Positions 1,763 to 62,375 of a stretch of DNA of 64,000 nucleotides are shown piece after piece. The DNA comes from an uncultured Gammaproteobacteria bacterium (GTDB lineage: Bacteria; Patescibacteriota; Microgenomatia; CAZETR01; Amesbacteraceae): NCBI GenBank assembly GCA_964543035.1, contig CAZIVL010000001.1, positions 236,159-300,158 of the forward strand, read 5' to 3'. The notes under the pieces are model-generated. The model saw only the letters and a list, made by a program, of their open reading frames with translations. It did no database searches and had not been told where the DNA came from. A program made the translations under genes and the position numbers. The first letter of the stretch is position 1. Each line of letters opens with the position of its first letter.

Positions 1763-3216
1763 GACTAAAACACTGGTTTCTCGTGATTTCAGTTTTGTTA
1801 ATAGGCTTGTTTGTAAGAACTTACAAAACCCCTGAATATTTGGGATTTTGGTACGACCAAGGAAGGGACGCCCTGGTTATCTGGGATCTGATTTACAATC
1901 ACAAATTTTTTCTTATTGGTCCTACCACTGGCATCGAAGGAATCTTTCGGGGACCGTGGTACTACTGGCTCATCACCCCTTTTTACTTTTTGGGTCGGGG
2001 AGACCCTGTTTGGCCAGCCGTATTTTTGGCTTTTACCACGATAGTGGCTTCTGCCTTAAGTTTTGTGCTAGCCAAAAAAATTGCAGGGTTCAAAGCCGGA
2101 TTTCTAGCACTGGTTATCTCCTCTCTGTCTTACAACCTGGTCGGTTCCGCCCGTTGGCTATCAAACCCAACTCCGATGTTTATTATCTCAGCGAGTATTC
2201 TCTATTTTGTCTTCAAAGTAATCGATGGTCGCAAATCCGCCTACCTGCCCTTATCCTTTCTCCTCGGATTGTCGATGCAATTTGGATCAGCGGCAGAAGT
2301 ATTTTATTTTCCCGCCATCGCGGCCTTCGTGTTGATCAACAAAAAATTATGGCCAGACCTAAAGACAATCATTTTTTCATCAGTGCTCCTGATGATCCCC
2401 TTTACCCCTCAGATTATTTTTGATGTTAGGCACGAAGGCATCCTGAGTAAAAATACATCCAAATTCTTTGTGGATGATTCCAGCTTCAAACTGTCATTTA
2501 TAGATACAATTTCCGTGCGTCTGCCTTTTTATTACGATATGTTCAGCAAAAAATTATTCCCCATGGTCCAGTCATACTTTATTCCATTTGGAATACTTGC
2601 AATAGCATCGCTCATTATCAGATTCAAAAAACTATCACCTCATGAAAGTTTCTTAAGTCTATTGTTTTTTGCACCACTTGTCGGAATGTTATTTTTTCAT
2701 GGTAACGAGGGCAATGTCTATGACTACTATTTCACTGGCTACTATCTTGTATTTGTCATCTTGTTTTCCGTCAGTATTTCACAATTGTATTCAAAAAAGT
2801 TAGCCCTCGCCGTATGCCTAATTTTTTTGGGATTTTTCCTCAAACAAAATACTATCGAATTGACAAATTACATTAAAGCAGGAGAGGGGGCGTACATTAC
2901 CCTTGCTTCTGGCATTAAAGCAGTCGACTGGGTATACAAAGATGCAGCAGGTACCCCCTTCAACACCGATGCCTACGTCCCGCCGATGATCCCATATGCT
3001 TATGACTATCTGTTTTTATGGCGAGGGACCAAGGTTTTCAATACTCTTCCTACCAAAGAGTTGCTCCCTCTTCTATATACCATTCAAGAGCCGGATTCTA
3101 GGCAACAGACCTTGCTAAACTCATGGCGTACTCGTCAGTCTACATTTTCATCCATAGAATATACCTATATTGCAGGCCCTCTAATAGTCGAGCGAAGGCA
3201 ACGTCATGAAAAATAA
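1759..3216 (+). CDS. polytopic membrane glycosyltransferase, GT-C superfamily (ArnT/PMT-like, DxxRDA family paralog)
   Basis: 485 aa with multiple TM helices. N-terminal loop motif DQGRDALVIWDL...GPTTGIEG...PWYYW. ATGA start/stop overlap with the upstream CDS (ATG 1759, TGA 1760-1762). Paralog of 3206..4648 and 19365..20837. Confidence 0.7.
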   Translation: MRLKHWFLVISVLLIGLFVRTYKTPEYLGFWYDQGRDALVIWDLIYNHKFFLIGPTTGIEGIFRGPWYYWLITPFYFLGRGDPVWPAVFLAFTTIVASALSFVLAKKIAGFKAGFLALVISSLSYNLVGSARWLSNPTPMFIISASILYFVFKVIDGRKSAYLPLSFLLGLSMQFGSAAEVFYFPAIAAFVLINKKLWPDLKTIIFSSVLLMIPFTPQIIFDVRHEGILSKNTSKFFVDDSSFKLSFIDTISVRLPFYYDMFSKKLFPMVQSYFIPFGILAIASLIIRFKKLSPHESFLSLLFFAPLVGMLFFHGNEGNVYDYYFTGYYLVFVILFSVSISQLYSKKLALAVCLIFLGFFLKQNTIELTNYIKAGEGAYITLASGIKAVDWVYKDAAGTPFNTDAYVPPMIPYAYDYLFLWRGTKVFNTLPTKELLPLLYTIQEPDSRQQTLLNSWRTRQSTFSSIEYTYIAGPLIVERRQRHEK

Positions 3217-4648
3217 GTCCATACTCATCTGCATAGTCTTACTCGCCTTGTTTGCCAGGTCATATCAGCTAGTGGAGAGGTTTGCCTATGATCATGATTC
3301 CGATCTCTCAGCCTGGATTTTTAAAGACATTGTCATTGATGGACACCTAAGGCTCATTGGCCAGCAGACATCATCATTGGGTCTTTTTATAGGTCCTCTC
3401 TTTTATTACTCACTCATCCCCTTTTACCTGGCCACGAATCTAGATCCCATCGGCACCTCAGTTTATCCCATAATTGTAGGTGTAGTCGGGGTCTTGAGTC
3501 TGTATTTTGTCACAGCCAAAACTACTGATAAAAAAACTGCTTTCTTTGCAGCTCTCATTTATGCCGGCTCTTTTTCTATCAGTAACACCGAACGGCAAGT
3601 CGTACCCACTGCCTGGATATTTGTTTGGTCCATCTGGTTTATCTACTCAGTACACCTTATTTATCAAGGAAAGAAGCTTGGACTCACTATCGCTGCTGTA
3701 TTACTGTCTCTGGTCTGGCATATCCAATTAGTGCTTGTGATTGCCGCAGTTCCCATGGGTATTGCCTGGATTTCGCGGTTCAAATCGTTTAAATTCAGAG
3801 ATTTTATTTTGCCGGTAGCGCTTCTAGTTATCATCTCAACCCCCCTGATTTTATTTGAGCTGCGTCACGATTTCATTCAGTTCAGGTCTTTATTCTTTTC
3901 GTCTCAGGTGGCAGAACAAGTTTCTCGAACATTAGCCCAAAAGTCGCTACATGTTTTGTCAGTTGCGGCAAAAAATGCCAATGCCATTTTTTGGGTTCGC
4001 CCAAACAATATTCCCGACTATGTTCTCCCCTTAGTAATTCTGATGGGATCAGGGATACTTTTGGTCAGAAAAAAGATATCCCGTCAATTGGTGTTAACTT
4101 TTGTTTTGTGGTTTGCAGTATTTATTGGTTTTTTTATCTTTCATCACATCAATCTTTCTGAGTACTACATCAACAGTCTGAACATTATGTGGATTATTTT
4201 GGCGGCGCTCGTGCTATCAAGACTTGGCAAATTAGGCAGTATTCTGCTAGTTGTTTTTTTGTTTTACAACCTTTACATAATAATTACTCTCCCTATAAAT
4301 CGTAGCGGTTATCTAAACAGAGTAGCAATGGTGGACTACATAGCAAAGGATGCAAAAGAACATAAGTTTCCTTGTATCGCCATCTCGTTTATGACCAATC
4401 CCGGTTATGAACTAGGGTATAGATATTTGTTCTGGCAGAAAAAAATGCATGTCAATCGCCCAAGTAGTAATAGCCCTGTCTACACAATTGTTTTTCCCCA
4501 CGGCCGGGCCAATCGTCTGGACTATACGAGTGGTGCTCTTGGACTGGTTCTGCCAGATTATTCTCGTTATAATGAATCCGGAGTAAGAGACAGTTGTTCA
4601 GGTGAGAACTCCAACGTTACTGATCCCATGTTTGGTTTTACAAAATGA
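3206..4648 (+). CDS. polytopic membrane glycosyltransferase, GT-C superfamily (DxxRDA family paralog)
   Basis: 480 aa hydrophobic protein. Motif DHDSDLSAWIFKD...GQQTSSLGLFIGPLFYY aligns with the neighbouring paralogs. 11-nt overlap with the upstream gene. Confidence 0.65.
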   Translation: MKNKSILICIVLLALFARSYQLVERFAYDHDSDLSAWIFKDIVIDGHLRLIGQQTSSLGLFIGPLFYYSLIPFYLATNLDPIGTSVYPIIVGVVGVLSLYFVTAKTTDKKTAFFAALIYAGSFSISNTERQVVPTAWIFVWSIWFIYSVHLIYQGKKLGLTIAAVLLSLVWHIQLVLVIAAVPMGIAWISRFKSFKFRDFILPVALLVIISTPLILFELRHDFIQFRSLFFSSQVAEQVSRTLAQKSLHVLSVAAKNANAIFWVRPNNIPDYVLPLVILMGSGILLVRKKISRQLVLTFVLWFAVFIGFFIFHHINLSEYYINSLNIMWIILAALVLSRLGKLGSILLVVFLFYNLYIIITLPINRSGYLNRVAMVDYIAKDAKEHKFPCIAISFMTNPGYELGYRYLFWQKKMHVNRPSSNSPVYTIVFPHGRANRLDYTSGALGLVLPDYSRYNESGVRDSCSGENSNVTDPMFGFTK

Positions 4649-5394
4649 CACCCTACTTATCCGTCATCATCCCCTCATACAACGAAGAAGACAACCTAAA
4701 TAGAGGTACACTCGATGTTGTCATTGCCTACTTGGAAAAACAGCCGTATCCCTGGGAAGTGATCCTTGTAAACGATGGCTCTACTGATTCCACAGCCCAG
4801 ATGTTGTCTGACTTCTCAAAATTTCAGAAGCATGTTCGCTTTATAGACAATCCTCATCAAGGCAAAGCCCAAACTGTTATTACTGGGGTTCTGGCGGCCG
4901 AGGGAGAAATCATTCTTTTTACAGACATGGACCAGGCTACTCCCATAACCGAGTTCGACAAATTTTTACCCAAGATAGAAGAAGGTCATGACATCATTAT
5001 TGGTTCTAGGGCCAACCGTGAAGGAGCTCCCTTGTTTAGAAAGATCCTGGCCTTTGGTATGGTGACGCTTCGAACGCTTATCCTCAATCTTCCCGTCCGG
5101 GATTCCCAGTGTGGCTTCAAAGCCTTTACTCGCGATGCAGCCGTCAAGATTTTTACAAAGATGAAAGAGCTGCGACCGTACAAGGTAATCGAGGGTCCGG
5201 CAGTAGACCCTGGTTTTGATGTGGAAATGATCTATCTCGGTCGCAAGCTGGGTTACAAGATTGTCGAAGTTCCCGTATCCTGGCGCCATCAAGAAAGTAG
5301 AAGAGTGAGCTTTATAAAAGATGCCAAAGCCGGCCTCATGGGACTTTTAGTTGTCCGCCTCCGCTCCCTCACCAACGCCTATAAGCTCAGATAA
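4645..5394 (+). CDS. GT2 glycosyltransferase, DPM1/GtrB/ArnC-like polyprenyl-phosphate sugar synthase
   Basis: N-terminus LSVIIPSYNEEDNL, then VILVNDGSTDST, then DMDQATP (DxD) and QCGFKAF. ATGA overlap at 4645-4648. Confidence 0.8.
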   Translation: MTPYLSVIIPSYNEEDNLNRGTLDVVIAYLEKQPYPWEVILVNDGSTDSTAQMLSDFSKFQKHVRFIDNPHQGKAQTVITGVLAAEGEIILFTDMDQATPITEFDKFLPKIEEGHDIIIGSRANREGAPLFRKILAFGMVTLRTLILNLPVRDSQCGFKAFTRDAAVKIFTKMKELRPYKVIEGPAVDPGFDVEMIYLGRKLGYKIVEVPVSWRHQESRRVSFIKDAKAGLMGLLVVRLRSLTNAYKLR

Positions 5395-5400
5395 GAGATT

Positions 5401-6153
5401 ATGAGTCCAAAACTGTCCATCGTTATCCCGGCTTACAATGAAGCAAAAAGCTTTCGATCTGGCATGCTGGACTCGGGCCTAGATTATCTCAAGTCGGTCA
5501 ATTATTCTTACGAAGTATTGTTTATAAACGATGGCTCGACCGACGACACGAAAGAACTTCTCGAGGGTCTCGCAAAAAAAGACAAACATTTCAAAGTCAT
5601 CACCATAAATCACGGAGGCAAAGCCAGTGCCGTCACGGCTGGAGTTCTGGCGGCCCAAGGCGAAATAGTATTATTTACCGACTTTGATCAATCCACTCCT
5701 CTGTATCAGGCAGAATCTTTTTTGAGATCTCATGATCTGGGGTCAGATGTCGTGATTGGGGTTAGGGGTGGGGGAGTAAGCACCAAGCAAGACACCTGGG
5801 TCAGAAAAGTCAGAAGTGCAATCTTTGTCACCCTTGTTCAGATTATTGCCCTGCCAGGAATCATTGACACTCAATGTGGCTTCAAGTCCTTCAAAAACGG
5901 TCTTGCCAAAAAAATATTTTCCAGTCTCAAAGTAAGCTTGCCTACTGGTGTAGTAACGGGAGGCTATATGGGGGCCTTTGATGTCGAAGTTCTCTTTTTG
6001 GCTCGCAAATACGGAGCAAATATTGCCCAGATCCCAGTCACCTGGATCAAATATCCCTCAGACAGATTAAATATCTGGAAGGAACCACTCCAAATGCTCA
6101 TCGATACAATCAAGGTCCGCCTCTGGGGTATACTAAGAAAGTACGATGCTTAA
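5401..6153 (+). CDS. GT2 glycosyltransferase, DPM1/GtrB-like (tandem paralog of 4645..5394)
   Basis: LSIVIPAYNEAKS, VLFINDGSTDDT, TDFDQSTP, QCGFKSF. Tandem duplicate of the preceding gene. Confidence 0.8.
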   Translation: MSPKLSIVIPAYNEAKSFRSGMLDSGLDYLKSVNYSYEVLFINDGSTDDTKELLEGLAKKDKHFKVITINHGGKASAVTAGVLAAQGEIVLFTDFDQSTPLYQAESFLRSHDLGSDVVIGVRGGGVSTKQDTWVRKVRSAIFVTLVQIIALPGIIDTQCGFKSFKNGLAKKIFSSLKVSLPTGVVTGGYMGAFDVEVLFLARKYGANIAQIPVTWIKYPSDRLNIWKEPLQMLIDTIKVRLWGILRKYDA

Positions 6154-7642
6154 GAAGTCTATTTTTATTTGTTTCCTGATCGCAGCAGCAGCAATCTTTT
6201 TACGTCTATACAACGTGGGTTTATGGCCTGTTTTTGCTGATGAATCCATCTATGTACGCTGGTCCCAGGTCATGCGGGCCGAAAGCACCCTCAGATTTCT
6301 TCCACTTTCCGATGGTAAACAGCCTCTGTTTATGTGGGCGACCATCCCCTTTTTCAAAATTATTTCCGATCCACTAGTGGCCGCCCGTTTTTTGTCAGCT
6401 CTTACCGGAATTTTTACAACTGCAGGCATAGCCCTTCTTTCTTGGCTAACTCTAAAAAATCTTCGCATCACATTCTGGACAGCCGCGATCTGGGCGACTG
6501 TTCCCTACTCAGTTTTTTTTAGTCGCATGGCTTTGGTAGATAGCATGCTCTGTATGTTTATCGTATGGGGATTGAGCCTAAGCGTTCTATCTATTCAAAA
6601 ACAGCGCTTAGATATGGCCATGATAGCCGGATTCTTTTTTGGGTTCGCGTGGCTCACAAAATCTCCCGCCACCATTGCCCTGATGTTATTACCTTCAGTA
6701 CTAATTTTTATCCCTCACAAAAATCTAAAAACTATTCTGTATTCACTATTCTATATTCTTACCCCAATCTTAATTGCCTTTGGCATGTACAACATCTTGC
6801 GCTTAGGCCCTGAGTTTCATCAGATTGCTTTGCGAAATGCCGATTATGTCTTTACTCTGCCTGAGATTCTAAAACACCCCCAAGATCCATTACTCCCTCA
6901 CCTTAAAGATAGTGTCACGTTTTATTTATATCTCCTCACACCTTTTGGTGTTTTATTGTCTTTGTGGGGTATATTGGCTGGGGGCAAATCGCACGTCTGG
7001 ACCAAGCTATTTTTTGGGCTTTGGTTTTTGCTACCCATCATTGCACTATCAGCCGTAGCCCGTGCTTTTACCGCCCGATATATTCTCTTTACAGCGCCTT
7101 TTGCCGTGATTCTGGCTGCTCACGCCGTGGAGCATATAGGCCAGCACACCAAAAGACACTTACTCTCAGCCCTGACTGGAGCCTTGATCATAATTCCTTC
7201 TCTTTGGATTGATCATCTGATGCTGACAAATCCTGCGAATATGCCCATGGCCAGGATTGAGCGCTCCGGGTATCTAGAAGAGTGGACTGCCGGGTTCGGG
7301 CTCAAAGAAGTATCTGCTCGCATTCAAACAGCGGCCGAAAAACGTCCAGTTATAGTGGGGTCTGAGGGTTTTTTTGGCACTCCATTTGACGGACTCCAAA
7401 TGTATCTCAACGGTGTACCAAATGTTCGAGTAATTGGAGTCGGAGTCTGGATAGACTCAGTCCACGAAAAGTTAATCAACGCCTCGGTCGAAAACCAGAT
7501 ATTTTTAGTGGTCAACTCCAGTAGGTTCCATCACGAAAAACCAGAAGATTTGGGACTCAAACTTTTGGCCAGCTACCCAAAGGCTGTTCGCCCAGATGGT
7601 ACCCAGGAATATTTGTTGTTTTTTGAATACATACCAAAATAA
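6146..7642 (+). CDS. ArnT/PMT-like GT-C membrane glycosyltransferase (GT83/GT39-like)
   Basis: 498 aa polytopic protein. N-terminal ADESIYVRWSQVMRAE...GKQPLFMW resembles the ArnT DE-motif loop. It follows two Und-P-sugar synthase-like GT2 genes, an ArnC-ArnT-like arrangement. Confidence 0.7.
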   Translation: MLKKSIFICFLIAAAAIFLRLYNVGLWPVFADESIYVRWSQVMRAESTLRFLPLSDGKQPLFMWATIPFFKIISDPLVAARFLSALTGIFTTAGIALLSWLTLKNLRITFWTAAIWATVPYSVFFSRMALVDSMLCMFIVWGLSLSVLSIQKQRLDMAMIAGFFFGFAWLTKSPATIALMLLPSVLIFIPHKNLKTILYSLFYILTPILIAFGMYNILRLGPEFHQIALRNADYVFTLPEILKHPQDPLLPHLKDSVTFYLYLLTPFGVLLSLWGILAGGKSHVWTKLFFGLWFLLPIIALSAVARAFTARYILFTAPFAVILAAHAVEHIGQHTKRHLLSALTGALIIIPSLWIDHLMLTNPANMPMARIERSGYLEEWTAGFGLKEVSARIQTAAEKRPVIVGSEGFFGTPFDGLQMYLNGVPNVRVIGVGVWIDSVHEKLINASVENQIFLVVNSSRFHHEKPEDLGLKLLASYPKAVRPDGTQEYLLFFEYIPK

Positions 7643-7647
7643 TACAA

Positions 7648-7677
7648 TGTCATCCTGAGTGTAAGCGAAGGATCCAG
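7648..7677. repeat. degenerate, internally deleted copy of the palindromic element (tgtcatcctgag...aagcgaa..ggatcca) in the 5' leader of the 7683 CDS
   Basis: Shares the left terminal repeat tgtcatcc(t/c)ga, the aagcgaa core and ggatcc with the full copies at 8167..8225 and 40495..40564. It lacks the right terminal repeat. Confidence 0.35.
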
Positions 7678-7682
7678 TCTTT

Positions 7683-9395
7683 ATGAAAAAAGACCTTTTA
7701 ATTTTATTAATTCTTATCATCCCCAGCTTTGCAATTTTGTTGCAAAAGGGTTATTTCTCCATGCACGATGATCTTCAGTCCATGCGCCAGTACCAGCAAG
7801 ACTTGTGTTTTGCAGACGGCCAGATCCCCTGTCGTTGGGTGCCGGATATGGGTTATGGTTACGGCTACCCTTTGTTCAATTTTTACCCCCCACTTCCATA
7901 TCTCTTAGGACAACCGTTACGTCTTTTAGATATCTCTTACATCGACATTGTAAAGATTGTGGGAATTATGGGTTGGGTCAGTTCAGCAGTCTTCATGTAT
8001 CTTTTGGGGCGAGAGTTTTGGGGGCGAAGAGGGGGATTAGTCTCGGCAGTCTTTTATACATATGCTCCTTATCATTCGGTTGATTTTTATGTCCGGGGAG
8101 CCATGAATGAGTTTTGGGCCCTAGTCTTCTACCCCGCCATTTTTTATAGCACTTATCGCCTCATATTGTCATCCCGACCAAGCGAAAGCGCGTGGAGGGA
8201 TCCCTCGACCCGGCTCGGGATGTCAAGCGTGAACGTGAAGTGGATTGTATTCACGTCTCTCTCCGTCACAGGTCTCATGCTTTCTCACAACCCCATGCTC
8301 ATGATCTTCGCCCCGGTTCTCATCGGCTGGTGCCTGCTCTGGCTGATAAAGTTTAAAACCATTCAACCATTTGGCCATTTATCCATTGCGGCCATATGGT
8401 CCGCAGGCCTGGCCGCCTTCTTCACTCTTCCGGTCGTTTTTGAGCAGCAGTTTGTCAGCATCTGGACACTCACCTCAGGATACTTCAATTATCTGGCTCA
8501 CTTTTTGGACATCAAGCAGATTTTTATAAATATCAATTGGGGTTATGGATCATCTGAGCTGGGACCTACTGACAGCATGTCATTTGCCATTGGTTACTTG
8601 CACTGGATAGTGCCATTGGTAATCTTGATTTTTTCCCTTACAAAAAAACTTCGGCCATATATAGCCATAATTCTTTATTCCATATTCATAATTCTTGTTT
8701 CTCTATTTATGTCACATTCAAAATCGACGTTTTTATGGCAGCATCTAAGACCCCTGGAGTTGCTACAGTTCCCCTGGCGTTTTCTGACTTTGACCATTTT
8801 TGGAGCCTCGTTTGCTGCAGGAGCCATTGCTCCAGCCGTAAACAAAAAATTATTGCTCACAGCACTTATAACCTCAGTCATAATACTAAATGGTAATTAC
8901 TTTCGTCCCAGGGATTGGTATCCAGATATGACTGACCAAGCAAAGTTTTCCGGCAAGTCGTGGCAACTTCTTGTTACCTCTGGCATCTTTGATTACTTAC
9001 CCATCTGGGCACCATTCCCCCCGGCAGACCCAGCCGGCGCTGACTTAAACATAGTTCAAGGCGAAGGGGAGTATACCCGAGTTCTAAAATCATCCAATAA
9101 GCAGGTTTATAAAGTCGATGTTATTTTGGACTCAGCCACAATTGAACTGCAGACATATTACTTTCCCGGTTGGCGGGCATATGTAGATGGAGTAGAACAG
9201 CAGATTGACCCCACTCGCGACCCTCTTTTGGGGCGCATCCAGGTCGACTTGTCTTCTGGATCCCACCAAGTTGAGATCCGGTTTACAAACACCCCGATTC
9301 GTCTCCTTGCAAACTCCCTATCTGTCATCTCCTGGGCGGCAATGGTTGGTATAATAATTGTATGGATGTGGAGGAGATCTCTTCTGAAGAGTTAA
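7683..9395 (+). CDS. YfhO-like polytopic membrane protein (GT-C-like), short-form family B
   Basis: 570 aa with many TM helices. N-terminal periplasmic motif MHDD...CRWVPDMGYGYGYPLFNFY is shared with 35412..37031. C-terminal YFPGWRAYVDG...terminal TM signature is shared with the 767-aa YfhO-like protein at 20783..23086. Confidence 0.6.
   Translation: MKKDLLILLILIIPSFAILLQKGYFSMHDDLQSMRQYQQDLCFADGQIPCRWVPDMGYGYGYPLFNFYPPLPYLLGQPLRLLDISYIDIVKIVGIMGWVSSAVFMYLLGREFWGRRGGLVSAVFYTYAPYHSVDFYVRGAMNEFWALVFYPAIFYSTYRLILSSRPSESAWRDPSTRLGMSSVNVKWIVFTSLSVTGLMLSHNPMLMIFAPVLIGWCLLWLIKFKTIQPFGHLSIAAIWSAGLAAFFTLPVVFEQQFVSIWTLTSGYFNYLAHFLDIKQIFININWGYGSSELGPTDSMSFAIGYLHWIVPLVILIFSLTKKLRPYIAIILYSIFIILVSLFMSHSKSTFLWQHLRPLELLQFPWRFLTLTIFGASFAAGAIAPAVNKKLLLTALITSVIILNGNYFRPRDWYPDMTDQAKFSGKSWQLLVTSGIFDYLPIWAPFPPADPAGADLNIVQGEGEYTRVLKSSNKQVYKVDVILDSATIELQTYYFPGWRAYVDGVEQQIDPTRDPLLGRIQVDLSSGSHQVEIRFTNTPIRLLANSLSVISWAAMVGIIIVWMWRRSLLKS
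8167..8225. repeat. GC-rich palindromic mini-element, copy 1, inserted in-frame in the 7683 CDS (encodes ...SAWRDPSTRLGMS...)
   Basis: Terminal inverted repeats tgtcatcccga at 8167-8177 and tcgggatgtca at 8215-8225. Internal 12-nt perfect palindrome gagggatccctc at 8195-8206. About 60% GC in a roughly 40% GC gene. The host protein carries a roughly 22-aa insertion relative to its paralog 35412 at this site. Confidence 0.6.
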
Positions 9396-10819
9396 GGGTC
9401 GTAAAATCACGAGCAGTCCGCGGCATGGCGACACTTACGGGTGGGGGATTGATCCTGACCTTCATCTCAGGTATCGGGGTATTGCTCCTGACTACTTATC
9501 TGGGACCAAAAGAATTTGGCCTCTACGCCTTGATAGGCAGTATTATTGTAATCTTAAGCTACTTTTCAGACATTGGTTTGGCGGCCTCTCTTATCCAAAA
9601 AAAAGAAAGTCCCACCAAGTCCGATCTCCAAACGACATTTACCATTCAGCAAACTCTAGTGTTACTAGGTATCGCCGTAGCCCTTATATTGTCTCCCGCA
9701 ATCAGAGCTTATTACTCCCTTGGTTTGCCTGAGTACTATCTCTACCTGTCTCTTCTTCTTAGCTTCTTTCTCTCTTCACTCAAATCTATTCCTTCGGTCA
9801 TGCTCGAGAGATCACTGCGTTTTGACCGTATTATGTTAGTTCGAATTGCCGAGTCTTTGACATTCAATGTCACCGCTGTGGTTCTGGCTATCCAAGGCAT
9901 GGGTCTTATGTCCTATGTCCCGGCCGTCATTGCTCAAGGAATAGTGGGACTAGTGCTCATTTGGCTATTTCATCCTTGGCCAGTAGGTCTGGCTTTCTCC
10001 AGAGCCAGTCTGCACAAACTATTGCACTTTGGAGTGCCCTATCAGACAAATTCTCTCTTGGCAGTTGCCAAAGACCAGGTGGTAAATCTCTTTTTGTGGA
10101 AGATAGTAGGGCCCGTCGGCATGGGTCTGGCAAATTGGGGTTTTTATTATAGTCAAATGCCCCAAAGACTGATCATGGACAATGCTACTCGGGTCGCCTT
10201 TCCTGCCCTTTCTCGTCTGCAGGATCATCCTCAGGAGTTCAAAGCGGCCACCGAAAAATTATTACTATTTGTGTGTTTAGTAGTATTTCCCACACTAGTG
10301 GGAATCAGTCTACTGTGGTCTCACTTGGCATACTTGGTTCCCAAATGGTACAAATGGCAACCGGCACTTATCCCACTGTATCTTTATTGCTTTAGCGCCG
10401 CCATTTCCTGTCTGTCTACTCCTCTGACAAACACTCTATATGCAGCAGGTAAAGCAAAGATTGTGACCGGACTCATGGTTATGTGGCTGGTTTTAGAGTG
10501 GCTGCTCAAGCCCACTATGGCCGCAAGTTTTGGCTATCTCGGCGTGGCTTACGCCACAGCCATTATTTCATTTTCTTCTCTAGTGCCCTTTTTTATCGCT
10601 CAAAGAATTATTCGCTTTAACATACTAAAGAGCCTATTTACTCCTGTCGTATCTACACTAATCATGATTATATTTGCAGTATGGTCGCATTCTTTGGGGG
10701 TAATACCTTCAGTCACAATTGCCACACTTGCCTATATCAGTGCCGTCGCCCTGTTTGGTGGAAAGAAATTATATGCCCAAGTTAGGCCATTCTACGAACA
10801 CTTCCGTGCAAAAATATAA
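9362..10819 (+). CDS. Wzx-like oligosaccharide/polysaccharide flippase (MOP superfamily)
   Basis: 485 aa with about 12-14 TM helices. N-terminus ...VKSRAVRG.ATL.GGG..L...I.G.GVLLLTTYLGPKEFGLYA matches the Wzx/Polysacc_synt N-terminal signature. Confidence 0.7.
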   Translation: MDVEEISSEELRVVKSRAVRGMATLTGGGLILTFISGIGVLLLTTYLGPKEFGLYALIGSIIVILSYFSDIGLAASLIQKKESPTKSDLQTTFTIQQTLVLLGIAVALILSPAIRAYYSLGLPEYYLYLSLLLSFFLSSLKSIPSVMLERSLRFDRIMLVRIAESLTFNVTAVVLAIQGMGLMSYVPAVIAQGIVGLVLIWLFHPWPVGLAFSRASLHKLLHFGVPYQTNSLLAVAKDQVVNLFLWKIVGPVGMGLANWGFYYSQMPQRLIMDNATRVAFPALSRLQDHPQEFKAATEKLLLFVCLVVFPTLVGISLLWSHLAYLVPKWYKWQPALIPLYLYCFSAAISCLSTPLTNTLYAAGKAKIVTGLMVMWLVLEWLLKPTMAASFGYLGVAYATAIISFSSLVPFFIAQRIIRFNILKSLFTPVVSTLIMIIFAVWSHSLGVIPSVTIATLAYISAVALFGGKKLYAQVRPFYEHFRAKI

Positions 10820-12416
10820 ACTTTGGTTACTTCTTTTTATTGGTACCATTTGTTGGTCGGCGACAATGGTAAAAAGCGGATTGATTTACGACTACGGTAT
10901 GGGTTTTTGGGGCGCCAATGGTCACGATGGCATTTGGCATATATCTCTTATCAAGTCGCTATCCCAGGGCTCAATGCAAATGCCTATTTTTGCAGGCGAG
11001 GGTATCAAAAATTATCATATTGGCTTTGATCTATTAGTAGCTGCTCTTCATACCGTTTCTCGCATTCCTGTTGTAACCTTGTACTTTCAGATACTGCCAC
11101 CACTGTTTGCATTCGCAATTGGACTTCTTACTTATCTTCTTACAAAAAATATTTGGTCGGTATTCTTTGTATATTTTGGCGGTTCATGGGCCTGGCTGTT
11201 CGGCCGAGGCGAGTCCACCTTTTGGTCTCAGCAAGCTATATCAACTCTTATCAATCCTCCACTGGCCCTTTCTCTTATATTGTTACTAGTAGGACTTATT
11301 TTAATTAGGTCAAACAAAGAGTTATTGGCAACCCTCTTTTTTGTAATTGCCGGTTTTGTAAAAGTATATGCCGGATTACTGGCCCTTGCAGCATTGTTAG
11401 TAGTAGGTCTTATAAAAGACCGTAAGTTTATCAAGATTTTTATCTTTACCCTTATTTTTTCGGCTGCCATGTATCTTCCCCTAAATCGCAATTCCACAAG
11501 TCTTTTGGTCTGGCAACCGGGTTGGTTCCTCGAGACCATGATGGGGCTCTCAGATCGTCTAAACTGGCCGAGATTTTATTCCGCCATGACCAATTACCGC
11601 TTGGCGGACAATTGGCCAAAAGCGGTCTTGGCATACACAGTCGCATTTTTAATCTTTTGGTTTGGCAATATGGGCACCCGAGGCATAAAAGAAATAAGTG
11701 TTTTAAAAGACTTAAAAAACATCAGAAATATTTCTTCCGAACATCTATTTATATGGACAATAATCATAGCCGGGGGAATAGTTCCCATGTTTTTTTTGCA
11801 AAAAGGCACTCCCTGGAACACTATTCAATTCTTTTACTACTCACTATTTTTTTCATCAGTTCTTGCGGGTCTTTCAGTAGAGTATCTGTTGTCAAAAATT
11901 AAAAATTCCAAATTCATAATTTTAGCCTCAGTACTCATAGTAGTTCTCACCATTCCCACGACAATCATTAGTCTCAAAGATATTTACTTGCCAGGCAGAC
12001 CTCCCGCCATGATTAGCACTCGGGAGTTAGAGGCTCTTAACTTTTTGGCTACTCTCCCCAAAGGCACAGTCCTTACACCGCCTGTTGTGGTCAATCCTTA
12101 TGCCAAAGCTCCCAGACCACTGTATCTATATGAGTCTACTGCGTACGTTTCCGCCATTTCAGGCCAACCTGTCTTTATGGAAGATGAGGTCAATCTGAAC
12201 ATTACAGATTATGCATGGGAAACCCGGAAAAGTGATGTAAAGTCATTATTTGAACAAACCGATAAAGAAAAAGCTAAAAAATTTGTGAATGATAACAACA
12301 TAAGTTATGTTTATCTTCCTCGAATCCATGAGACTAGACCATATCTCAGCGATACACAGATGGGGATGAAAAACATATTTGAAAATTCCGAAGCAGCCAT
12401 TTGGCAACGACAATGA
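10773..12416 (+). CDS. polytopic membrane protein with C-terminal soluble domain; function unknown (possible GT-C-like)
   Basis: The ORF is open from a TTG at 10719. The first ATG is at 10773, preceded by GGTGGAAAG. Motifs include IYDYGMGFWGANGHDGIWHIS. The roughly 400-aa hydrophobic region is followed by a roughly 130-aa hydrophilic tail. Confidence 0.5.
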   Translation: MPKLGHSTNTSVQKYKLWLLLFIGTICWSATMVKSGLIYDYGMGFWGANGHDGIWHISLIKSLSQGSMQMPIFAGEGIKNYHIGFDLLVAALHTVSRIPVVTLYFQILPPLFAFAIGLLTYLLTKNIWSVFFVYFGGSWAWLFGRGESTFWSQQAISTLINPPLALSLILLLVGLILIRSNKELLATLFFVIAGFVKVYAGLLALAALLVVGLIKDRKFIKIFIFTLIFSAAMYLPLNRNSTSLLVWQPGWFLETMMGLSDRLNWPRFYSAMTNYRLADNWPKAVLAYTVAFLIFWFGNMGTRGIKEISVLKDLKNIRNISSEHLFIWTIIIAGGIVPMFFLQKGTPWNTIQFFYYSLFFSSVLAGLSVEYLLSKIKNSKFIILASVLIVVLTIPTTIISLKDIYLPGRPPAMISTRELEALNFLATLPKGTVLTPPVVVNPYAKAPRPLYLYESTAYVSAISGQPVFMEDEVNLNITDYAWETRKSDVKSLFEQTDKEKAKKFVNDNNISYVYLPRIHETRPYLSDTQMGMKNIFENSEAAIWQRQ

Positions 12417-19372: not shown

Positions 19373-20837
19373 GTTAATCATTATCTTTTTAGTAGCTTGG
19401 CTAGTTAGATTTTCTTATATCCAGGCTAGAGCTATTACCTTCAGTTTTGACCAGGCCAGGGATGCCTATACGGCGGGAGAAATACTTAAGGGTGATCTCA
19501 AGATCCAAGGTCCACCCACGTCCACTCGAGATTTTTTCCACGGAGTTTTATTTTATTATTTGTTGGCAATCGGTTACGGCATTGGGTCTGGCAGTCCATT
19601 GGTAGCGGCCAGTTGGATGGCCGCCATTAGTAGTTTGGGGGTTATTCCCATCTATTTTCTTACCAAAAAAATCACCGGGCGTGAGCTTGATTCAATTTTG
19701 GCTGCTTTTCTTTTTGCCGTGTCGTATGAGCAGACCCAATACGCGACCTATCTTAGCAACACGCTTATTGCCTCCGCCACAGTGCCCGTCCTATACCTCG
19801 GTCTTTATCTCTGGCATCAGAACAAAAAAGTGGGCCCTATTCTTGCTGGTCTCGGATGGGGACTGTCTATCCAATCTAATTTTTTTCTTCTTTATCATCT
19901 TCCGGTCATATTACTACTTTCAATATTTAAGATTTTACCTCTATCCAAAAAAAATCTTCTAACCTTCTCAATACCTGTACTCTTGTGCATTTCCACATTT
20001 ATTATTTCTGAAGCCAAGTTTGGTTTTCCAAGTAGGATAGGAGTTCAAAATCTTTTGACACGCAGGGAGTACACCACCCAAAAAGTGGGTCTTCCACGCT
20101 TAATAAACACCTATAAAGATCAGTTTATTCTCCTGATTGCCAACAATCTCAATCCCGGTCAATCAAAAATAGCGATAGGTGTATTTGTGGTGGCCCTTCT
20201 GGGTCTATTGATTCAAATTAAAAGAGATCGAGGTCTTTTGATTTTGCTTTTAGGTTTGTTTTCGTCTATTCCAGCCCTATTTTTCGGCGGTGTCAGTACC
20301 CCTTACATCAATGTGGGTTTGGGGTCATTGATAATTATAGTCTTGGCCGTCTCATATCAAAGATTTTTTATGCCACTTGTCTTTTTGCTTGCCTGTTTCC
20401 AACTATCGTATCTCTCTACAAATTTACATCGTGGTCAATCGATTTTTTCTATTCAAAAAGACATGCTCTTAAGTCGTGAGCTTGAAGCCATAGACTATAT
20501 GTACCATGAAAGCCGGGGTCGACCGTTTTCGATCAACTCAATCACTGCCCCTTTGTACATCAATACCACTTGGTCCTATTTGTTCAATTGGTATGGCAAG
20601 TCAAAATACGGTTTTGTACCGTACTGGCATGGCCACTCCCAAGCTGGATCTCTAGGTGACAATCTAAAAACTCCACCCAAAGACATAGAACGCACTTTTA
20701 TGATTATCGAACCTTCTCAAGGTTTGCCTCAAGATATTATTAATCAGATCCTAGAAGAGGAAAAAGGTTATTCTACTTTTAATCACGAGCGAAAGTTTGG
20801 CGAGATTACCATCCAAAACCGCTCAGGTAAGATGTAA
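19365..20837 (+). CDS. polytopic membrane glycosyltransferase, GT-C superfamily (DxxRDA family paralog)
   Basis: 490 aa. FDQARDAYTAGEIL...QGPPTSTRDFFHGVLFYY aligns with 1759, 3206 and the C-terminal domain of the first CDS. Confidence 0.65.
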   Translation: MHKLIIIFLVAWLVRFSYIQARAITFSFDQARDAYTAGEILKGDLKIQGPPTSTRDFFHGVLFYYLLAIGYGIGSGSPLVAASWMAAISSLGVIPIYFLTKKITGRELDSILAAFLFAVSYEQTQYATYLSNTLIASATVPVLYLGLYLWHQNKKVGPILAGLGWGLSIQSNFFLLYHLPVILLLSIFKILPLSKKNLLTFSIPVLLCISTFIISEAKFGFPSRIGVQNLLTRREYTTQKVGLPRLINTYKDQFILLIANNLNPGQSKIAIGVFVVALLGLLIQIKRDRGLLILLLGLFSSIPALFFGGVSTPYINVGLGSLIIIVLAVSYQRFFMPLVFLLACFQLSYLSTNLHRGQSIFSIQKDMLLSRELEAIDYMYHESRGRPFSINSITAPLYINTTWSYLFNWYGKSKYGFVPYWHGHSQAGSLGDNLKTPPKDIERTFMIIEPSQGLPQDIINQILEEEKGYSTFNHERKFGEITIQNRSGKM

Positions 20838-23086
20838 GCAGTGGTCACGCTCAGACCCAAGAGTGTAACAACAAGACCCACAGCAAAGCTTATTGGCACA
20901 AAATAAAATACCACTGCAGATTTCCCTTCATCAATTTTTACCCCCAAGAACCCATATTCATCTTCTATGATGTCGCTTTTTTTGCCATTTACTTTTGCAC
21001 TCCATCCCGGATAGTTGGGAACCATTGAGCGCAAGGCTGTCTTTTCCATAGTCTCTGCTACTAGCTCTATCTTATTTGGTAAATAATTAACTATTGCGAT
21101 TGATCCGCTATCAGTGGCAACTCGTCCTTCACTTAAAAATCCGTGATCAGAAACACTGTCAAACCCTTTTGTGGCCAGACTAAATCTAGACTTAGGATTT
21201 TTATTTTTAAATATCTTAACCTCACCCTCAGTCAGTACCTTTTCATAGTTGGGATCACGGGTTATGACATCTATTTCATCCCGAGTTGCCAAATAATCTA
21301 CTGCAAATTCATCCAAGACCAATGTTCTAGGATCCGAAAGAGATACCATCTTAGTAAATACTGGTTTTTGACCTGAGCCTTTTTCGATAGCGTAAATCAA
21401 GCCAGATATATATTTGTCGAAGGAGACCGCTTGATACCCAGCAATAGTTTCCCACCCATACACACCTCCTATATTTGCCGGAAGTAGTTGGTCCGTCATG
21501 CTGACGACTCTCGCAGGATACTTATGATTTGTTAGTAATTCAGTTACTTTTGTCTTTGGAAAAAATGAGCTCAAAGTAAAGCTGCCATTTTGTATTCCAA
21601 ACTGTCTGGACAAATCAAATCCGTTCAAAAGTACTAGAAGCGACAATGATAAATAGACTAATTTGGAGTGTTTTAGCTTTAATGCAGATATCCCCAGGAC
21701 CAAGCCAAAAATCAAAAGTCCAGTCGGCACAATCATAGATCTCAGTCCCGTCACGACGTTTGCAGGGGTCGTATCAAAAAGATATTTTGTAAACAACGAT
21801 CCGGGAAAATGTAAGTTAAAAAAAGCGACCCCGATTGCCACCAGGCTAAAAAGACCAAACATTCCGACTCCACCTATGACACGTTGTTTCTTTATGATTG
21901 CGTCTATACCTATCGCAGAAAGCACCGCCAGACCTAAGTCAACCAACGCATAAGCTCTCGTCGGAGTAATTGTAGACACAAAAGGTATTTGATTTTCAAA
22001 AATAAGATCAGTCAGCCAGTTATTTGTAGCCATAATCAAGCCTATGCCCACTACCCCCATCCAAAAAAATTTGTCTTTTTGCTTCGACCACATTCCCACT
22101 ATTGCCAACATTAGACCGACAACTCCTATATAAAATGAATACTCGTGATAATAAGAGGGTCCGCCAAAATAATTCCAATTTCCCGGATTTCCATAATAGT
22201 TGGGAAACCAAAAATACAGCAAGTGGTGAAGTGGAGAAGTGATATTTTCAACCACTCCATCAAAATTAGAAGCCCGGTGACTGTTCATAATAAATTCTAT
22301 CGAAGGAATAAGTTGAACCCCAGTAATCATAATTCCAAGTCCAATCCCCAAAACACATCTTCTTAAGGAAACCTTTTTATATGCTGCATATAACCCAATT
22401 ACTGCCACCATGTATATCCATAGCTGCAAATGAGCAGCGGTTCCTGCAATCCCAATTCCAAGTGCAGTCAATGCAACTGATTTTCTGGAAGTTTTATTCA
22501 TGTAATTTATTCCGGTCATAGCCAGTGTGCTCCAAGCAAGTGTATGAAGAGCTGAATTAATATAAAAAAACCCTGCTGCAAAACCTCCGATTCCCCAAGT
22601 TATTGATCCCATAAATGATGCGAGAGTTGACAGTTTGCAACTTCTCAAAAATATATACACAAAAAAAACCATACTAAATATCTGTAGCATCCCCAACATT
22701 GCCCAGGCTTTCGCAAATTCCCATATCCAAAACAAAATATTCCCCACAAAAAAAGCTCCCGTCAAAAAATCTGCGGCCAGTGGAGTTCCTGAGAACTGAG
22801 TAGTATTCCAGAGGGGGACAACCCCCTTTTTCCATTGTTCTATAGCCAAATATTTGAAAGGAATGACTTGTCTTACAGAGTCAAACTGGTGTAAATTTTT
22901 TACATGAAAGGGAAACAATTCCCCCTCAAAAGCAATGTCCACCCATGGCATGTAATATCCAGTCAGCATGTCAGCATTTGTCGGCCACTTGTTATGGAGT
23001 AAGCCACGACCAAATACCGATAAGCACACGATAAGTCCCAAAATTACCCCAATGCCTAAATCCTTTTTCAAGAGCATACCAGCCAT
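20783..23086 (-). CDS. YfhO family polytopic membrane protein (GT-C-like)
   Basis: 767 aa with more than 12 TM helices. N-terminal loop ...WNTTQFSGTPLAADF resembles the YfhO WNPxxFSGxP motif. C-terminal YPGWSAKVNGK...terminal TM. Its 3' end overlaps the convergent 19365 CDS by 55 nt. Confidence 0.7.
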   Translation of the reverse strand: MAGMLLKKDLGIGVILGLIVCLSVFGRGLLHNKWPTNADMLTGYYMPWVDIAFEGELFPFHVKNLHQFDSVRQVIPFKYLAIEQWKKGVVPLWNTTQFSGTPLAADFLTGAFFVGNILFWIWEFAKAWAMLGMLQIFSMVFFVYIFLRSCKLSTLASFMGSITWGIGGFAAGFFYINSALHTLAWSTLAMTGINYMNKTSRKSVALTALGIGIAGTAAHLQLWIYMVAVIGLYAAYKKVSLRRCVLGIGLGIMITGVQLIPSIEFIMNSHRASNFDGVVENITSPLHHLLYFWFPNYYGNPGNWNYFGGPSYYHEYSFYIGVVGLMLAIVGMWSKQKDKFFWMGVVGIGLIMATNNWLTDLIFENQIPFVSTITPTRAYALVDLGLAVLSAIGIDAIIKKQRVIGGVGMFGLFSLVAIGVAFFNLHFPGSLFTKYLFDTTPANVVTGLRSMIVPTGLLIFGLVLGISALKLKHSKLVYLSLSLLVLLNGFDLSRQFGIQNGSFTLSSFFPKTKVTELLTNHKYPARVVSMTDQLLPANIGGVYGWETIAGYQAVSFDKYISGLIYAIEKGSGQKPVFTKMVSLSDPRTLVLDEFAVDYLATRDEIDVITRDPNYEKVLTEGEVKIFKNKNPKSRFSLATKGFDSVSDHGFLSEGRVATDSGSIAIVNYLPNKIELVAETMEKTALRSMVPNYPGWSAKVNGKKSDIIEDEYGFLGVKIDEGKSAVVFYFVPISFAVGLVVTLLGLSVTTAYILPERFWMVISPNFRS

Positions 23087-42626: not shown

Positions 42627-43603
42627 AAAAAATTGGCCTTGTCACCACACCTCTCACTTCAGGACATGCAATCCGAGGTGTAGGTTTTTATACCAAACGC
42701 CTCCTCCCACGCCTCAAAGAGCAGGCTGCTTCGCACGGCCTAGAAATAGTAGACCCGACAACTTCCAGTTTTGACTTAATTCACTATCCATATTTTGATC
42801 TATTTTCTCATACATTACCCATTCTGAAATCCAAAAAAACTGTAGTTACCATCCACGACGTTATCCCTCTGGAGTTTCCAGATCATTACCCGCCTGGATT
42901 CAAGGGTAGCCTCAACCTGTTTTTGCAAAAGCTGTCTCTTTACAATGTCGATAGAGTCATTACCGACTCTTATGCGTCTATAAAGACTATTCGGAAGTAC
43001 CTGGGAGTACCTCATGAAAAGCTAAAGCTAGTGTATCTGGCAGCAGACCCGATATTTAAAAAAGTAAAAAACCCCAAAAACAAATTTCATCTTCCCAAGA
43101 AATTTATTCTCTACGTGGGTGATATAAATTTCAACAAAAATATTCCAAATTTACTTGTAGCAGCAAAGATCACAGGTCTACCGCTTGTTATCGTGGGTAA
43201 GCAAGCGAGTGAGATGCCCAATATGGACTTAAGACACCCAGAGCTTCGCCACCTCTTGGATACAAAGTGGAGTCATGTCATACGTCTTGGCTTCGTATCC
43301 GACGAGGACTTGGTGGACATTTACAATCTGGCTACAGTGTATTGCCAGCCATCATTGTCTGAAGGATTTGGTCTGCCGGTTTTGGAAGCCCTGTCTTGTG
43401 GCACGGCAGTGGCTTGTAGCAACAGATCCTCCTTGCCAGAAATAGCAGGCGATGCCGCTACATATTTTGATCCCGAAGATCCAAACCTGATTGCAGATGC
43501 TATCCAAATGGCCAGTCCAAAAGGATCACAAGATCAGGTCAATAAATTCTCATGGGAAAAAGCAGCCGAAGAGACTCTCCTTACGTACTTAGAAGCGTTA
43601 TGA
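42623..43603 (+). CDS. GT4 (GT-B fold) glycosyltransferase
   Basis: ATGA overlap at 42623-42626. C-terminal EGFGLPVLEALSCGTAVACS. Confidence 0.7.
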   Translation: MKKIGLVTTPLTSGHAIRGVGFYTKRLLPRLKEQAASHGLEIVDPTTSSFDLIHYPYFDLFSHTLPILKSKKTVVTIHDVIPLEFPDHYPPGFKGSLNLFLQKLSLYNVDRVITDSYASIKTIRKYLGVPHEKLKLVYLAADPIFKKVKNPKNKFHLPKKFILYVGDINFNKNIPNLLVAAKITGLPLVIVGKQASEMPNMDLRHPELRHLLDTKWSHVIRLGFVSDEDLVDIYNLATVYCQPSLSEGFGLPVLEALSCGTAVACSNRSSLPEIAGDAATYFDPEDPNLIADAIQMASPKGSQDQVNKFSWEKAAEETLLTYLEAL

Positions 43604-44706: not shown

Positions 44707-44735
44707 ACGCACACGCAATTATATAGTTCAGCCTA

Positions 44736-56320: not shown

Positions 56321-56330
56321 AGCTCGCGCT

Positions 56331-62301: not shown

Positions 62302-62338
62302 ATTTCTTAAAAGTTGGGTGATTTATATCACACGCTTG

Positions 62339-62368: not shown

Positions 62369-62375
62369 GCGCAAA

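Follow-up and report, generated by a model that had tools for sequence, protein, structure and literature searches.

Two paralogous genes of a compact YfhO-like GT-C family in a 64-kb glycan island of a Microgenomates-group bacterium

GT-C glycosyltransferases are by definition proteins with 7–13 transmembrane (TM) helices (PMC11127046, PMC5836110). Among them, YfhO of B. subtilis and S. aureus and Lmo1079 of L. monocytogenes are extracellular enzymes that use C55-P-GlcNAc as the donor to decorate lipoteichoic or wall teichoic acid with GlcNAc (PMC5836110, PMC8035078). The characterised YfhO proteins work outside the cell, together with a GT2 glycosyltransferase and a flippase (PMC5836110, PMC8035078), and Rismondo et al. 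have suggested that YfhO possibly flips its own donor (PMC5836110). Three-component glycosylation systems in general have been described (PMC11127046). Another family of the GT-C clan CL0111, PF10131, is listed without a function (PMC7801869). A solved structure of YfhO was not found in the searches conducted in the present study.

The gene pair and its annotation

The window, meaning the whole stretch of 64,000 nucleotides analysed, contains two related genes on the plus strand. The first, at 7683..9395, encodes a protein of 570 aa (type 1 paralog) with both termini predicted to be cytoplasmic; the second, at 35412..37031, encodes a protein of 539 aa (type 2) with the same architecture but without a 19-residue insert. 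The two proteins align end to end with 33% identity (BLASTP, E 1e-97), and the original prediction of clear paralogs of about 540–570 aa was right, coordinates included. The homolog search yielded 3805 homologs of the 570-aa protein and 911 of the 539-aa protein, and the family comprises more than 7,000 clusters (50% identity, E <= 1e-30), its hosts being Microgenomates-group candidate-phyla bacteria. The database labels of the homologs are frequently 'hypothetical' or else the misnomer 'pterin synthase-related', and some of the NCBI and JGI names come from PF10131.

The curated models treat the two proteins differently. The best model for the 539-aa protein is PF10131, 'PTPS_related' (50.8 bits, cut-off 26.4), and PF09586 (YfhO) is also above its threshold (37.1 bits versus 28.5). 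No Pfam model matched the 570-aa protein, even at E 10, and NCBIfam gave nothing usable for it (archaeo_STT3 at 23 bits, far under the cut-off of 450 bits). The assignment to YfhO by Pfam was thus obtained for one paralog only, and there as the second model. Among 59 sampled family members, PF10131 matches 33 and misses 26, as it misses the 570-aa protein, and PF09586 matches 16. The PF10131 match of the 539-aa protein covers only profile positions 1–315 of 621 and begins at residue 64, which leaves the PF10131 domain without the HD...CRW loop; the C-terminal half of the family also differs from PF10131. With PF10131, a model of the GT-C clan, as its top match, the family has already been catalogued in part, under a misleading name.

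The suggestion that the family is possibly uncharacterised agrees with the outcome of the literature and structure searches, which found no paper on the compact family and no solved structure. Queries on PF10131, 'PTPS-related', Patescibacteria with GT-C, and CPR with YfhO found no functional study, and the PDB sequence search with the family profile returned nothing meaningful (best E about 1, an unrelated protein).

Fold and relationship to YfhO and other GT-C families

The AF2 model of the 570-aa protein (pLDDT 93, pTM 0.93) has a GT-C fold similar to solved GT-C enzymes, as revealed by structural comparison, and the model and hydropathy together give about 12 TM helices. Short loops rich in lysine and arginine (MKK, GREFWGRRGG, KFK, TKKLRP, NKK, RRSLLKS) alternate with the motif-bearing loops. 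This positive-inside pattern, from which the external side was assigned, is consistent with the conserved motifs facing outside. More than 50 positions are conserved at 90% or above, and they are concentrated in the loops predicted to be external. The GT-C fold does not always belong to a transferase; PIG-U, for example, occupies ranks 15–17 by structural similarity.

The comparator was a full-length YfhO-family protein of 767 aa encoded in the same window (20783..23086, minus strand; PF09586 at 43 bits versus a cut-off of 28.5), all 22 homologs of which match PF09586. The N-terminal TM module of the family, about 380 residues long, is homologous to that of YfhO: hhalign aligned residues 7–383 over 337 columns with a probability of 99.6% (E 6e-25). 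In addition, an HMM made from YfhO homologs matches both paralogs (4.4e-26 and 2.3e-11). YfhO is nearer to the family than the PMT_2 paralogs of the window, for which the E value is 6.8e-10.

The C-terminal module of the 570-aa protein (9045..9389, plus strand) consists, according to the secondary structure of the model, of a beta-sandwich (residues 455–534, FPGW..DG..G.H), predicted to be extracytoplasmic, followed by a terminal TM helix (residues 538–569). The FPGW segment is strongly conserved (F494 97%, P495 97%, W497 96%). A homologous beta-sandwich with the motif [YF]PGW.A.VDG...G.H.V and a terminal helix is present in YfhO, and the order of sandwich and helix is the same in the models of the 570-aa protein and the 767-aa protein. 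Pairwise BLASTP of the C-termini (E 0.01–0.06) is too weak alone, and the question was settled by profile–profile comparison, in which the module matched the 767-aa YfhO profile with a probability of 98.5% (E 2.6e-15) over 101 columns including the terminal helix. In the family member P0281, the C-terminus matches positions 756–822 of the Pfam YfhO profile directly. Taken together, the N-terminal and C-terminal matches, the fold and the greater distance to PMT_2 bear out the original prediction of a compact YfhO-type GT-C subfamily that shares its C-terminal segment and last TM helix with the 767-aa protein. The weaker occurrence of this segment that had been proposed for a fourth protein, at 56359, was not supported: hhalign gave a probability of 25%, BLASTP E 0.03 and hmmsearch within the window E 0.004, and the protein, the true ORF of which is 56347..58308, is an AftD-like GT-C protein lacking the terminal TM helix. 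The full family profile matches the protein as a whole weakly (2.9e-8), which points at most to a remote kinship with this other member of the GT-C clan.

The family proteins are about 200–300 residues shorter than YfhO; approximately two TM helices are missing from them, as is the alpha/beta portion of the external domain. In the AF2 model of the 767-aa protein (pLDDT 78), extra helices (residues 403–498) and an alpha/beta subdomain (about 504–640) precede the beta-sandwich and terminal helix. In both YfhO and the compact family the largest external segment lies between the last two helices, with about 130 residues (407–537) in the family versus 389 in YfhO of B. subtilis (PMC5836110). The definition of YfhO used for comparison comprises 13 TM helices and an extracellular domain of about 390 aa between the last two, and the family, with about 12 helices, departs from it. 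A Cys pair and the FNFY motif are specific to the family, and, unlike the characterised YfhO proteins, the family resides in Microgenomates-group hosts and the 570-aa protein falls under the PF09586 threshold. The genes of both lie near a GT2 partner, which is soluble or fused in the family and CsbB-like, with C-terminal TM helices, in the case of YfhO.

Other GT-C enzymes are more distant. Besides their lower similarity, the PMT_2/GT39-like and Gtr-type enzymes that serve three-component glycosylation in the periplasm (ArnT, GtrII-type, GtlB, GacL) possess neither the C-terminal beta-sandwich with its terminal helix nor the CRW and FNFY motifs. The family does not belong to STT3/PglB/AglB or to mycobacterial AftD at the sequence level, and its external domain is much smaller than theirs. 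The 570-aa protein contains no DxD motif, and the 539-aa protein has one D.D, at residue 276, which is not conserved.

The first extracytoplasmic loop

The first loop predicted to be extracytoplasmic comprises residues 23–73 of the 570-aa protein (7749..7901, plus strand) and carries the motif G..MHD...R......C......PCRW..D..GYG.P.FNFY...PY. Its conservation was mapped on 351 full-length homologs aligned with MAFFT, using the residue numbers of the 570-aa protein. Conservation is high at G23 (92%), H28 (89%), D29 (97%), R35 (98%) and C42 (87%), in the PCRW turn (P49 99%, C50 88%, R51 99%, W52 94%), at D55 (88%), G61 (98%) and P63 (99%), and in FNFY (92–98%; F65 96%, N66 92%, Y68 98%). The motif is real and no coincidence of two sequences. 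The HD, CRW, PD and FNFY residues had been described as invariant; D29, R51, W52 and FNFY are indeed highly conserved, but the proline of PD (P54) is variable, being present in only 58% of the homologs. Both C42 and C50 are present in 307 of the 351 homologs, neither in 42 and one alone in just two. Such joint occurrence fits a putative extracytoplasmic disulfide.

The corresponding loop of YfhO reads D...G..P(L/CR)W(N)P..G.PL versus HD...G..PCRW.PD..GYG.PLF in the family. The family motif is a lineage-specific, putatively Cys-bridged version of the first-loop motif of YfhO and not a wholly new signature. In hhalign comparisons, D29 is aligned with the invariant D68 of YfhO and with the invariant Asp of the 'DE' motif in ten PMT_2 paralogs. 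Because of these two alignments, the term 'candidate catalytic residue', which the original prediction had applied to acidic residues of the loop, is reasonable for D29, a putative catalytic Asp at the canonical catalytic position of GT-C enzymes.

Gene neighbourhood and predicted function

The 570-aa protein is encoded in a cluster on the plus strand in which two genes for soluble GT2 proteins come first. The GT2 of 249 aa (4645..5394; Pfam Glycos_transf_2), a candidate polyprenyl-phosphate sugar synthase, has a conserved upstream position, and the GT2 of 250 aa (5401..6153) was recognised by Pfam and NCBIfam; neither possesses a TM segment. They are followed by a PMT_2-type GT-C protein of 498 aa (6146..7642, Pfam), a conserved neighbour directly upstream of the 7683 gene, and the 3′ end of the latter is overlapped by a flippase gene of the Wzx/MOP family (9362..10819; Polysacc_synt_3 E 5.5e-45, NCBIfam MOP flippase). 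The block of two GT2 genes, PMT_2, the family gene and Wzx is conserved, as found at 84 loci where the flanks include PMT_2 in 76, the small GT2 in 71, Wzx in 65 and the gene next to Wzx in 61. Wzx-type flippases usually carry Und-PP-oligosaccharides. No flippase of the GtrA/GtcA type was found among the window ORFs scanned.

In at least four genomes and at least three cluster representatives (P0244, P0245 and P0264) a GT2 is fused to the family protein: these representatives have an N-terminal GT2 domain, detected by Pfam, followed by a full-length family match, and PF10131 also scores on the family part of P0244 and P0264. The fused ORFs in four of the loci (L019–L022) match the GT2 encoded at 5401..6153 with E values from 5e-72 to 3.5e-64, and, judging by this similarity, the GT2 fused to the N-terminus of the family protein is the orthologue of that window gene. 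In NCBIfam, the GT2 proteins of the window come closest to PgfS, ArnC and Dol-P hexose transferase, with each score under its cut-off. The adjacent or fused GT2, resembling polyprenyl-phosphate sugar synthases, hints at a donor linked to a lipid phosphate. However, the ArnC and PgfS matches (62–79 bits) are far below the equivalog cut-offs of 500–529, so the GT2 proteins could be ordinary glycan-extending enzymes.

It is probable, though by a distance not certain, that both genes encode compact GT-C glycosyltransferases of the YfhO/PF10131 lineage, which take a polyprenyl-phosphate-linked sugar and, on the outer side of the membrane, attach it to a surface glycan; the outward topology, the polyprenyl-phosphate-monosaccharide donor and the glycan acceptor are all inferred. 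The soluble GT2 encoded two genes upstream, or fused in some genomes, would work at the inner membrane face, charging polyprenyl phosphate with a sugar taken from a nucleotide sugar, and the lipid-linked sugar would then be flipped across. The family protein would move the sugar onto a surface glycopolymer or glycoprotein assembled by the 64-kb glycan island. Its outward active site would be formed by the first external loop, in which Asp29 directly follows TM1 and has as its neighbours His28, Arg35 and the PCRW turn with its putative Cys42–Cys50 bridge, and by conserved basic, acidic and His residues located where later helices end on the outer side (K91, R138, E143, H202/N203, E254, H273 and QFPWR362–366). 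The small C-terminal beta-sandwich is tethered to the membrane by the last helix and probably assists in placing the acceptor.

Other readings of the family have to be weighed against this one. The protein might act like PglB/AglB/STT3, as an oligosaccharyltransferase or ligase that accepts a Wzx-flipped undecaprenyl-diphosphate-linked oligosaccharide and hands it on en bloc, either to a protein such as an S-layer protein or pilin or to a cell-wall acceptor. This seems rather unlikely. Membership in the STT3/oligosaccharyltransferase group was rejected on the archaeo_STT3 score, the lack of a Pfam STT3 match and the lack of WWDYG, and the WWD motif is absent from both paralogs. A pterin-related function, following the name '6-pyruvoyl-tetrahydropterin synthase-related protein', is scarcely credible, having in its favour only the name borne by PF10131 and one homolog. 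The PTPS enzyme domain was detected by Pfam in none of the 59 members, the protein spans the membrane many times and adopts a GT-C fold, PF10131 itself belongs to the GT-C clan (PMC7801869), and the neighbouring genes all serve glycan synthesis; the pterin-synthase identity was dismissed as a naming artefact.

The family protein could also be a non-catalytic GT-C-fold protein that serves the soluble GT2 synthase as a membrane anchor or scaffold, flips the donor, or does both, leaving the transfer to the neighbouring PMT_2 protein. A synthase anchored by a membrane partner is known in mycobacterial Ppm1. The GT2 proteins without TM helices that are fused to the family protein in some genomes, the nearly constant adjacency of a PMT_2 GT-C, the GtrA-type flippase not found in the window and the existence of non-enzymatic GT-C folds such as PIG-U speak for this, as does the idea of Rismondo et al. 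of donor flipping by YfhO (PMC5836110). Nevertheless, the many highly conserved positions, lying mostly in loops predicted to be external and including the canonical catalytic Asp, are unexpected for a mere anchor, and the conserved external beta-sandwich argues for extracytoplasmic activity, which makes a non-catalytic role improbable. An equally long shot is that the family protein and its fused or adjacent GT2 constitute a self-contained minimal glycosylation machine, in which the GT-C protein anchors the synthase, conducts the lipid-linked sugar across and transfers it outside; conduction by the GT-C domain itself is suggested because no GtrA-type flippase is encoded nearby. If so, such a machine would amount to a slimmed-down form of the three-component system, in keeping with the reduced genomes of candidate phyla, and would offer a tractable model for the idea of YfhO-type enzymes flipping their own donor.

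With the preferred assignment as a compact YfhO-like GT-C glycosyltransferase, a very abundant and poorly annotated family gains a defensible identity, together with a defined motif for its putative catalytic loop, a GT2 partner that is fused to it in some genomes and a likely disulfide. The annotation is corrected, and D29, R35, R51, K91, R138, E143, H202, E254, H273 and R366 are offered for mutagenesis. The family is an addition to a known enzyme class and leaves the accepted view of GT-C enzyme action unchanged, and a small, confidently modelled relative could aid structural work on YfhO.

The window encodes about 16 proteins of the GT-C type, an example of the large genomic islands with arrays of membrane glycosyltransferases in Microgenomates-group bacteria. 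The gene following Wzx (10719..12416, plus strand) encodes a conserved polytopic membrane protein without a Pfam or NCBIfam match, for which, among three GT-C profiles, only PMT_2 gave a hit, a weak one with a probability of 45%.

Relationship to YfhO and extent of the family

The open reading frames at 7683..9395(+) and 35412..37031(+), encoding proteins of 570 aa (type 1) and 539 aa (type 2), align end to end with 33% identity (E 1e-97) and are therefore paralogs, as originally predicted and with exact coordinates. The AlphaFold2 model of the 7683 protein, whose numbering is used here, was based on an alignment of 59 sequences and is confident (mean pLDDT 93, pTM 0.93). It comprises TM1 (2-20), a loop of ~65 residues with two short helices, a helix bundle to 406, a 48-residue linker, a beta-sandwich (455-534) weakly resembling glycosidase accessory domains (Foldseek matches 1nof and 7o0e) and a final long helix (538-569). 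Because the K/R-rich short connections (MKK, GREFWGRRGG, KFK, TKKLRP, NKK and the C-terminal RRSLLKS) alternate with loops bearing conserved motifs, the protein probably possesses ~12 TM helices, with both termini inside and the conserved motifs all outside.

A YfhO profile was built from the 767-aa protein encoded at 20783..23086(-) and its homologs, all carrying PF09586. In the profile-profile comparison, family residues 7-383 matched YfhO 15-393 (probability 99.6%, E 6e-25), D29 being aligned with the invariant Asp of YfhO, 'G.IPCRW.PD' with 'G..PLWNP' and 'GYPLF' with 'G.PL'. The C-terminal 170 residues, run separately, matched over 101 columns spanning the [YF]PGW...DG....G.H strands and the terminal helix (98.5%, E 2.6e-15), which bears out the suggestion that the FPGW..VDG segment and terminal TM are shared with this YfhO homolog. 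The C-terminal similarity also proposed, as a weaker one, for the AftD-like protein (56347..58308, PF11847; start earlier placed at 56359) was not established. An HMM of YfhO homologs matches both paralogs directly (4.4e-26 and 2.3e-11). The ten PMT_2 paralogs of the window are more distant than YfhO (E 6.8e-10), and their invariant 'DE' Asp aligns with D29.

In the model of the 767-aa YfhO (pLDDT 78), helices at ~403-498 and an alpha/beta subdomain at ~504-640 precede the beta-sandwich and last helix; the family lacks both. For YfhO of B. subtilis, 13 TM helices have been described, the last two separated by an external loop of 389 residues (PMC5836110), whereas this loop has ~130 residues in the family. 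With two-module homology, missing helices and subdomain and a shorter loop, the description 'short-form YfhO-like' is thus accurate.

The HMMER search against Pfam upheld the YfhO assignment in part: the 35412 protein matches YfhO PF09586 (37.1 bits) above threshold, but PF10131 'PTPS_related', also above threshold, scores higher (50.8 bits), and the 7683 protein matched no Pfam model even at E 10. Among 59 sampled family members, 33 matched PF10131, 16 YfhO and 12 PMT_2.

Among the candidates scored, 3805 relatives of the 7683 protein and 911 of the 35412 protein were found. When 1.84 billion cluster representatives (50% identity) were searched exhaustively with a profile, 20,529 passed E <= 1e-3 and 7,021 passed E <= 1e-30. 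The named hosts are Candidatus Amesbacteria, Daviesbacteria, Blackburnbacteria, Shapirobacteria, Woesebacteria, Collierbacteria and the 'Patescibacteria/Microgenomates group'. At least 591 stretches of the species-representative genome set encode a relative; the blanket label 'uncultured Gammaproteobacteria' on many MAGs of this set is taken to be a placeholder. Homologs of both types recur on same-size contigs (307,829, 320,099, 168,596, 89,865 and 79,135 bp), which indicates that the duplication is old and that both copies have been retained.

Conserved N-terminal loop

Conservation mapping of the HD / CRW.PD motif over 351 full-length homologs showed that HD, CRW, the Asp of PD and FNFY, predicted to be invariant, are family-wide; the Pro of 'PD' is the sole variable residue (58%). 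The conserved positions are G23 (92%), H28 (89%), D29 (97%), R35 (98%) and C42 (87%), followed by P49 (99%), C50 (88%), R51 (99%) and W52 (94%) in the PCRW turn, then D55 (88%), G61 (98%), P63 (99%), F65 (96%), N66 (92%), Y68 (98%) and Y73 (95%); M27, G57, G59, F/Y at 67 and P72 also belong to the motif. C42 and C50 are both present in 307 sequences, both missing in 42 and found alone in 2, the pattern that a putative disulfide would produce. The PF10131 match of the 35412 protein is confined to profile positions 1-315 of 621; since its first aligned residue is 64, the Pfam domain does not include the HD...CRW loop.

Beyond the loop, positions with conservation of at least 90% include K91, Y125, P129-Y130, V137-R138-G139-A140..E143, P151, H202-N203, P250..E254, H273, W286-G-Y-G289.S291, W352, Q362-F-P-W-R366, F407, D437, P440, P447, F494-P495.W497, T537 and R540.

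Gene neighbourhood and GT2 fusions

Glycan biosynthesis takes up nearly all of the window, as a single island with most genes on the + strand; it includes ~16 GT-C-type membrane proteins (~11-12 PMT_2-like, one GT87-like, one YfhO, one AftD-like and the two family members), ~14 GT2 and ~5 GT4. It also encodes a Wzx flippase, methyltransferases, an SDR, a 2OG oxygenase, an AsnB-like protein resembling asparagine synthase (27350..29188) and a carbamoyltransferase (60544..62301(-)). The large ORFs 30822..32117, 32101..33294, 43552..44706 and 45485..47311 had no Pfam match, nor had 3206..4648, which matches the window PMT_2 profile (4.7e-22). G+C is ~0.42-0.45 over the first 44 kb and ~0.36-0.40 over the last 20 kb (44001..64000), where minus-strand genes are more numerous; this part may be separately acquired or more variable.

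Type 1 genes recur in the order GT2-GT2-PMT_2-family-Wzx-membrane protein, and type 2 genes are embedded in PMT/PMT_2 runs. The flanks of 84 loci contain a PMT_2 homolog in 76, a small GT2 in 71, Wzx in 65 and, directly after Wzx, the membrane protein in 61. The latter (10719..12416(+) in the window; 565 aa, polytopic, with a C-terminal soluble part) has no match in Pfam or NCBIfam and weak similarity to the PMT_2 profile (probability 45%); it may represent an enzyme of the polymerase/ligase type or else a highly diverged GT-C. In a Daviesbacteria locus (L005, 1849..7965), the family gene directly follows an NDP-glycero-manno-heptose-like pathway set (GHMP kinase, two SIS-domain proteins, nucleotidyltransferase, HAD phosphatase and epimerase), which hints at heptose as one sugar handled in that lineage.

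The two GT2s upstream of the 7683 gene (4645..5394(+) and 5401..6153(+); 249 and 250 aa) lack TM segments, and their best NCBIfam matches, far below the equivalog cut-offs, are the polyprenyl-phosphate sugar synthases PgfS, ArnC, Dol-P hexose transferase and PpgS. In four genomes (loci L019-L022, ORFs at about 5212..7659) the family gene is a single continuous ORF of 802-816 aa, and in three cluster representatives (P0244, P0245 and P0264) one of 821-832 aa; in all seven a GT2 domain occupies the N-terminal ~240 residues, and in L019-L022 this domain is orthologous to 5401..6153 (E 5e-72 to 3.5e-64). These fusions are the strongest evidence of functional coupling between GT2 and the family, and the N-in topology is compatible with a GT2 domain at the N-terminus on the cytoplasmic side. 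GT2-GT-C fusions are recurrent in these bacteria, a PMT_2-type enzyme (736 aa; locus L002, 1289..3499) being another partner. Four further representatives (P0241, P0265, P0281 and P0373) join the family module to PMT/PMT_2, TMEM260-like plus TPR, or a second family copy, as fusions or merged gene calls.

Proposed function and an inserted repeat

That the family protein is some type of GT-C glycosyltransferase is very probable. The three-component systems CsbB/GtcA/YfhO and Gtr suggest, by analogy, a mechanism of three steps: a soluble GT2 would load a sugar onto polyprenyl phosphate on the inner side of the membrane, the lipid-linked sugar would be flipped, and the family enzyme would transfer the sugar, outside the membrane, to a surface glycan or glycoprotein under construction. 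D29 may serve as catalytic base or activate the acceptor, the phosphate might be held by conserved R, K and H residues, and the beta-sandwich might aid acceptor handling. We consider this three-step mechanism rather likely overall.

Structural matches to STT3-like proteins would suit an en bloc oligosaccharyltransferase or ligase supplied by the adjacent Wzx, but WWD is absent from both paralogs, the one D.D, in the 35412 protein, is not conserved, and no STT3 HMM match qualified; such an enzyme seems unlikely. That the protein is a non-catalytic GT2 anchor or flippase is quite improbable, given the dense conservation in loops predicted to be external. PF10131 is a GT-C clan member listed as of unknown function (PMC7801869). 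Its pterin-synthase name is a misnomer, and the chance of a pterin-related function is negligible.

The fold, catalytic-loop position and genomic logic are canonical GT-C features, and the family is already partly captured by Pfam, as PF10131; the literature searched yielded no paper on the family. New here are the homology to YfhO made explicit for two modules, a defined short architecture, a putatively disulfide-bridged Cys loop motif that is specific to the family and falls beyond the boundaries of the present Pfam domain, the fusion with GT2, and the family's size and concentration in particular taxa.

A palindromic repeat of ~60-70 nt, TTGTCATCCCGACC...GGAGGGATCCCTCGAC.C.GCTCGGGATG.CA, occurs in frame inside two different GT-C genes (8166..8226 and 40494..40565), with a half-copy at 7649..7674. 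In the 7683 gene it encodes a SSRPSESAWRDPSTRLGMS insert absent from the 35412 paralog; this insert, in a loop predicted to be cytoplasmic, is the principal region of low confidence in the model (block mean pLDDT ~63; a second dip to ~66 lies near 291-300). The repeat RNA has a predicted folding energy of -28.8 kcal/mol (z -2.3), and the repeat looks like a MITE/REP-like element tolerated in coding sequence.
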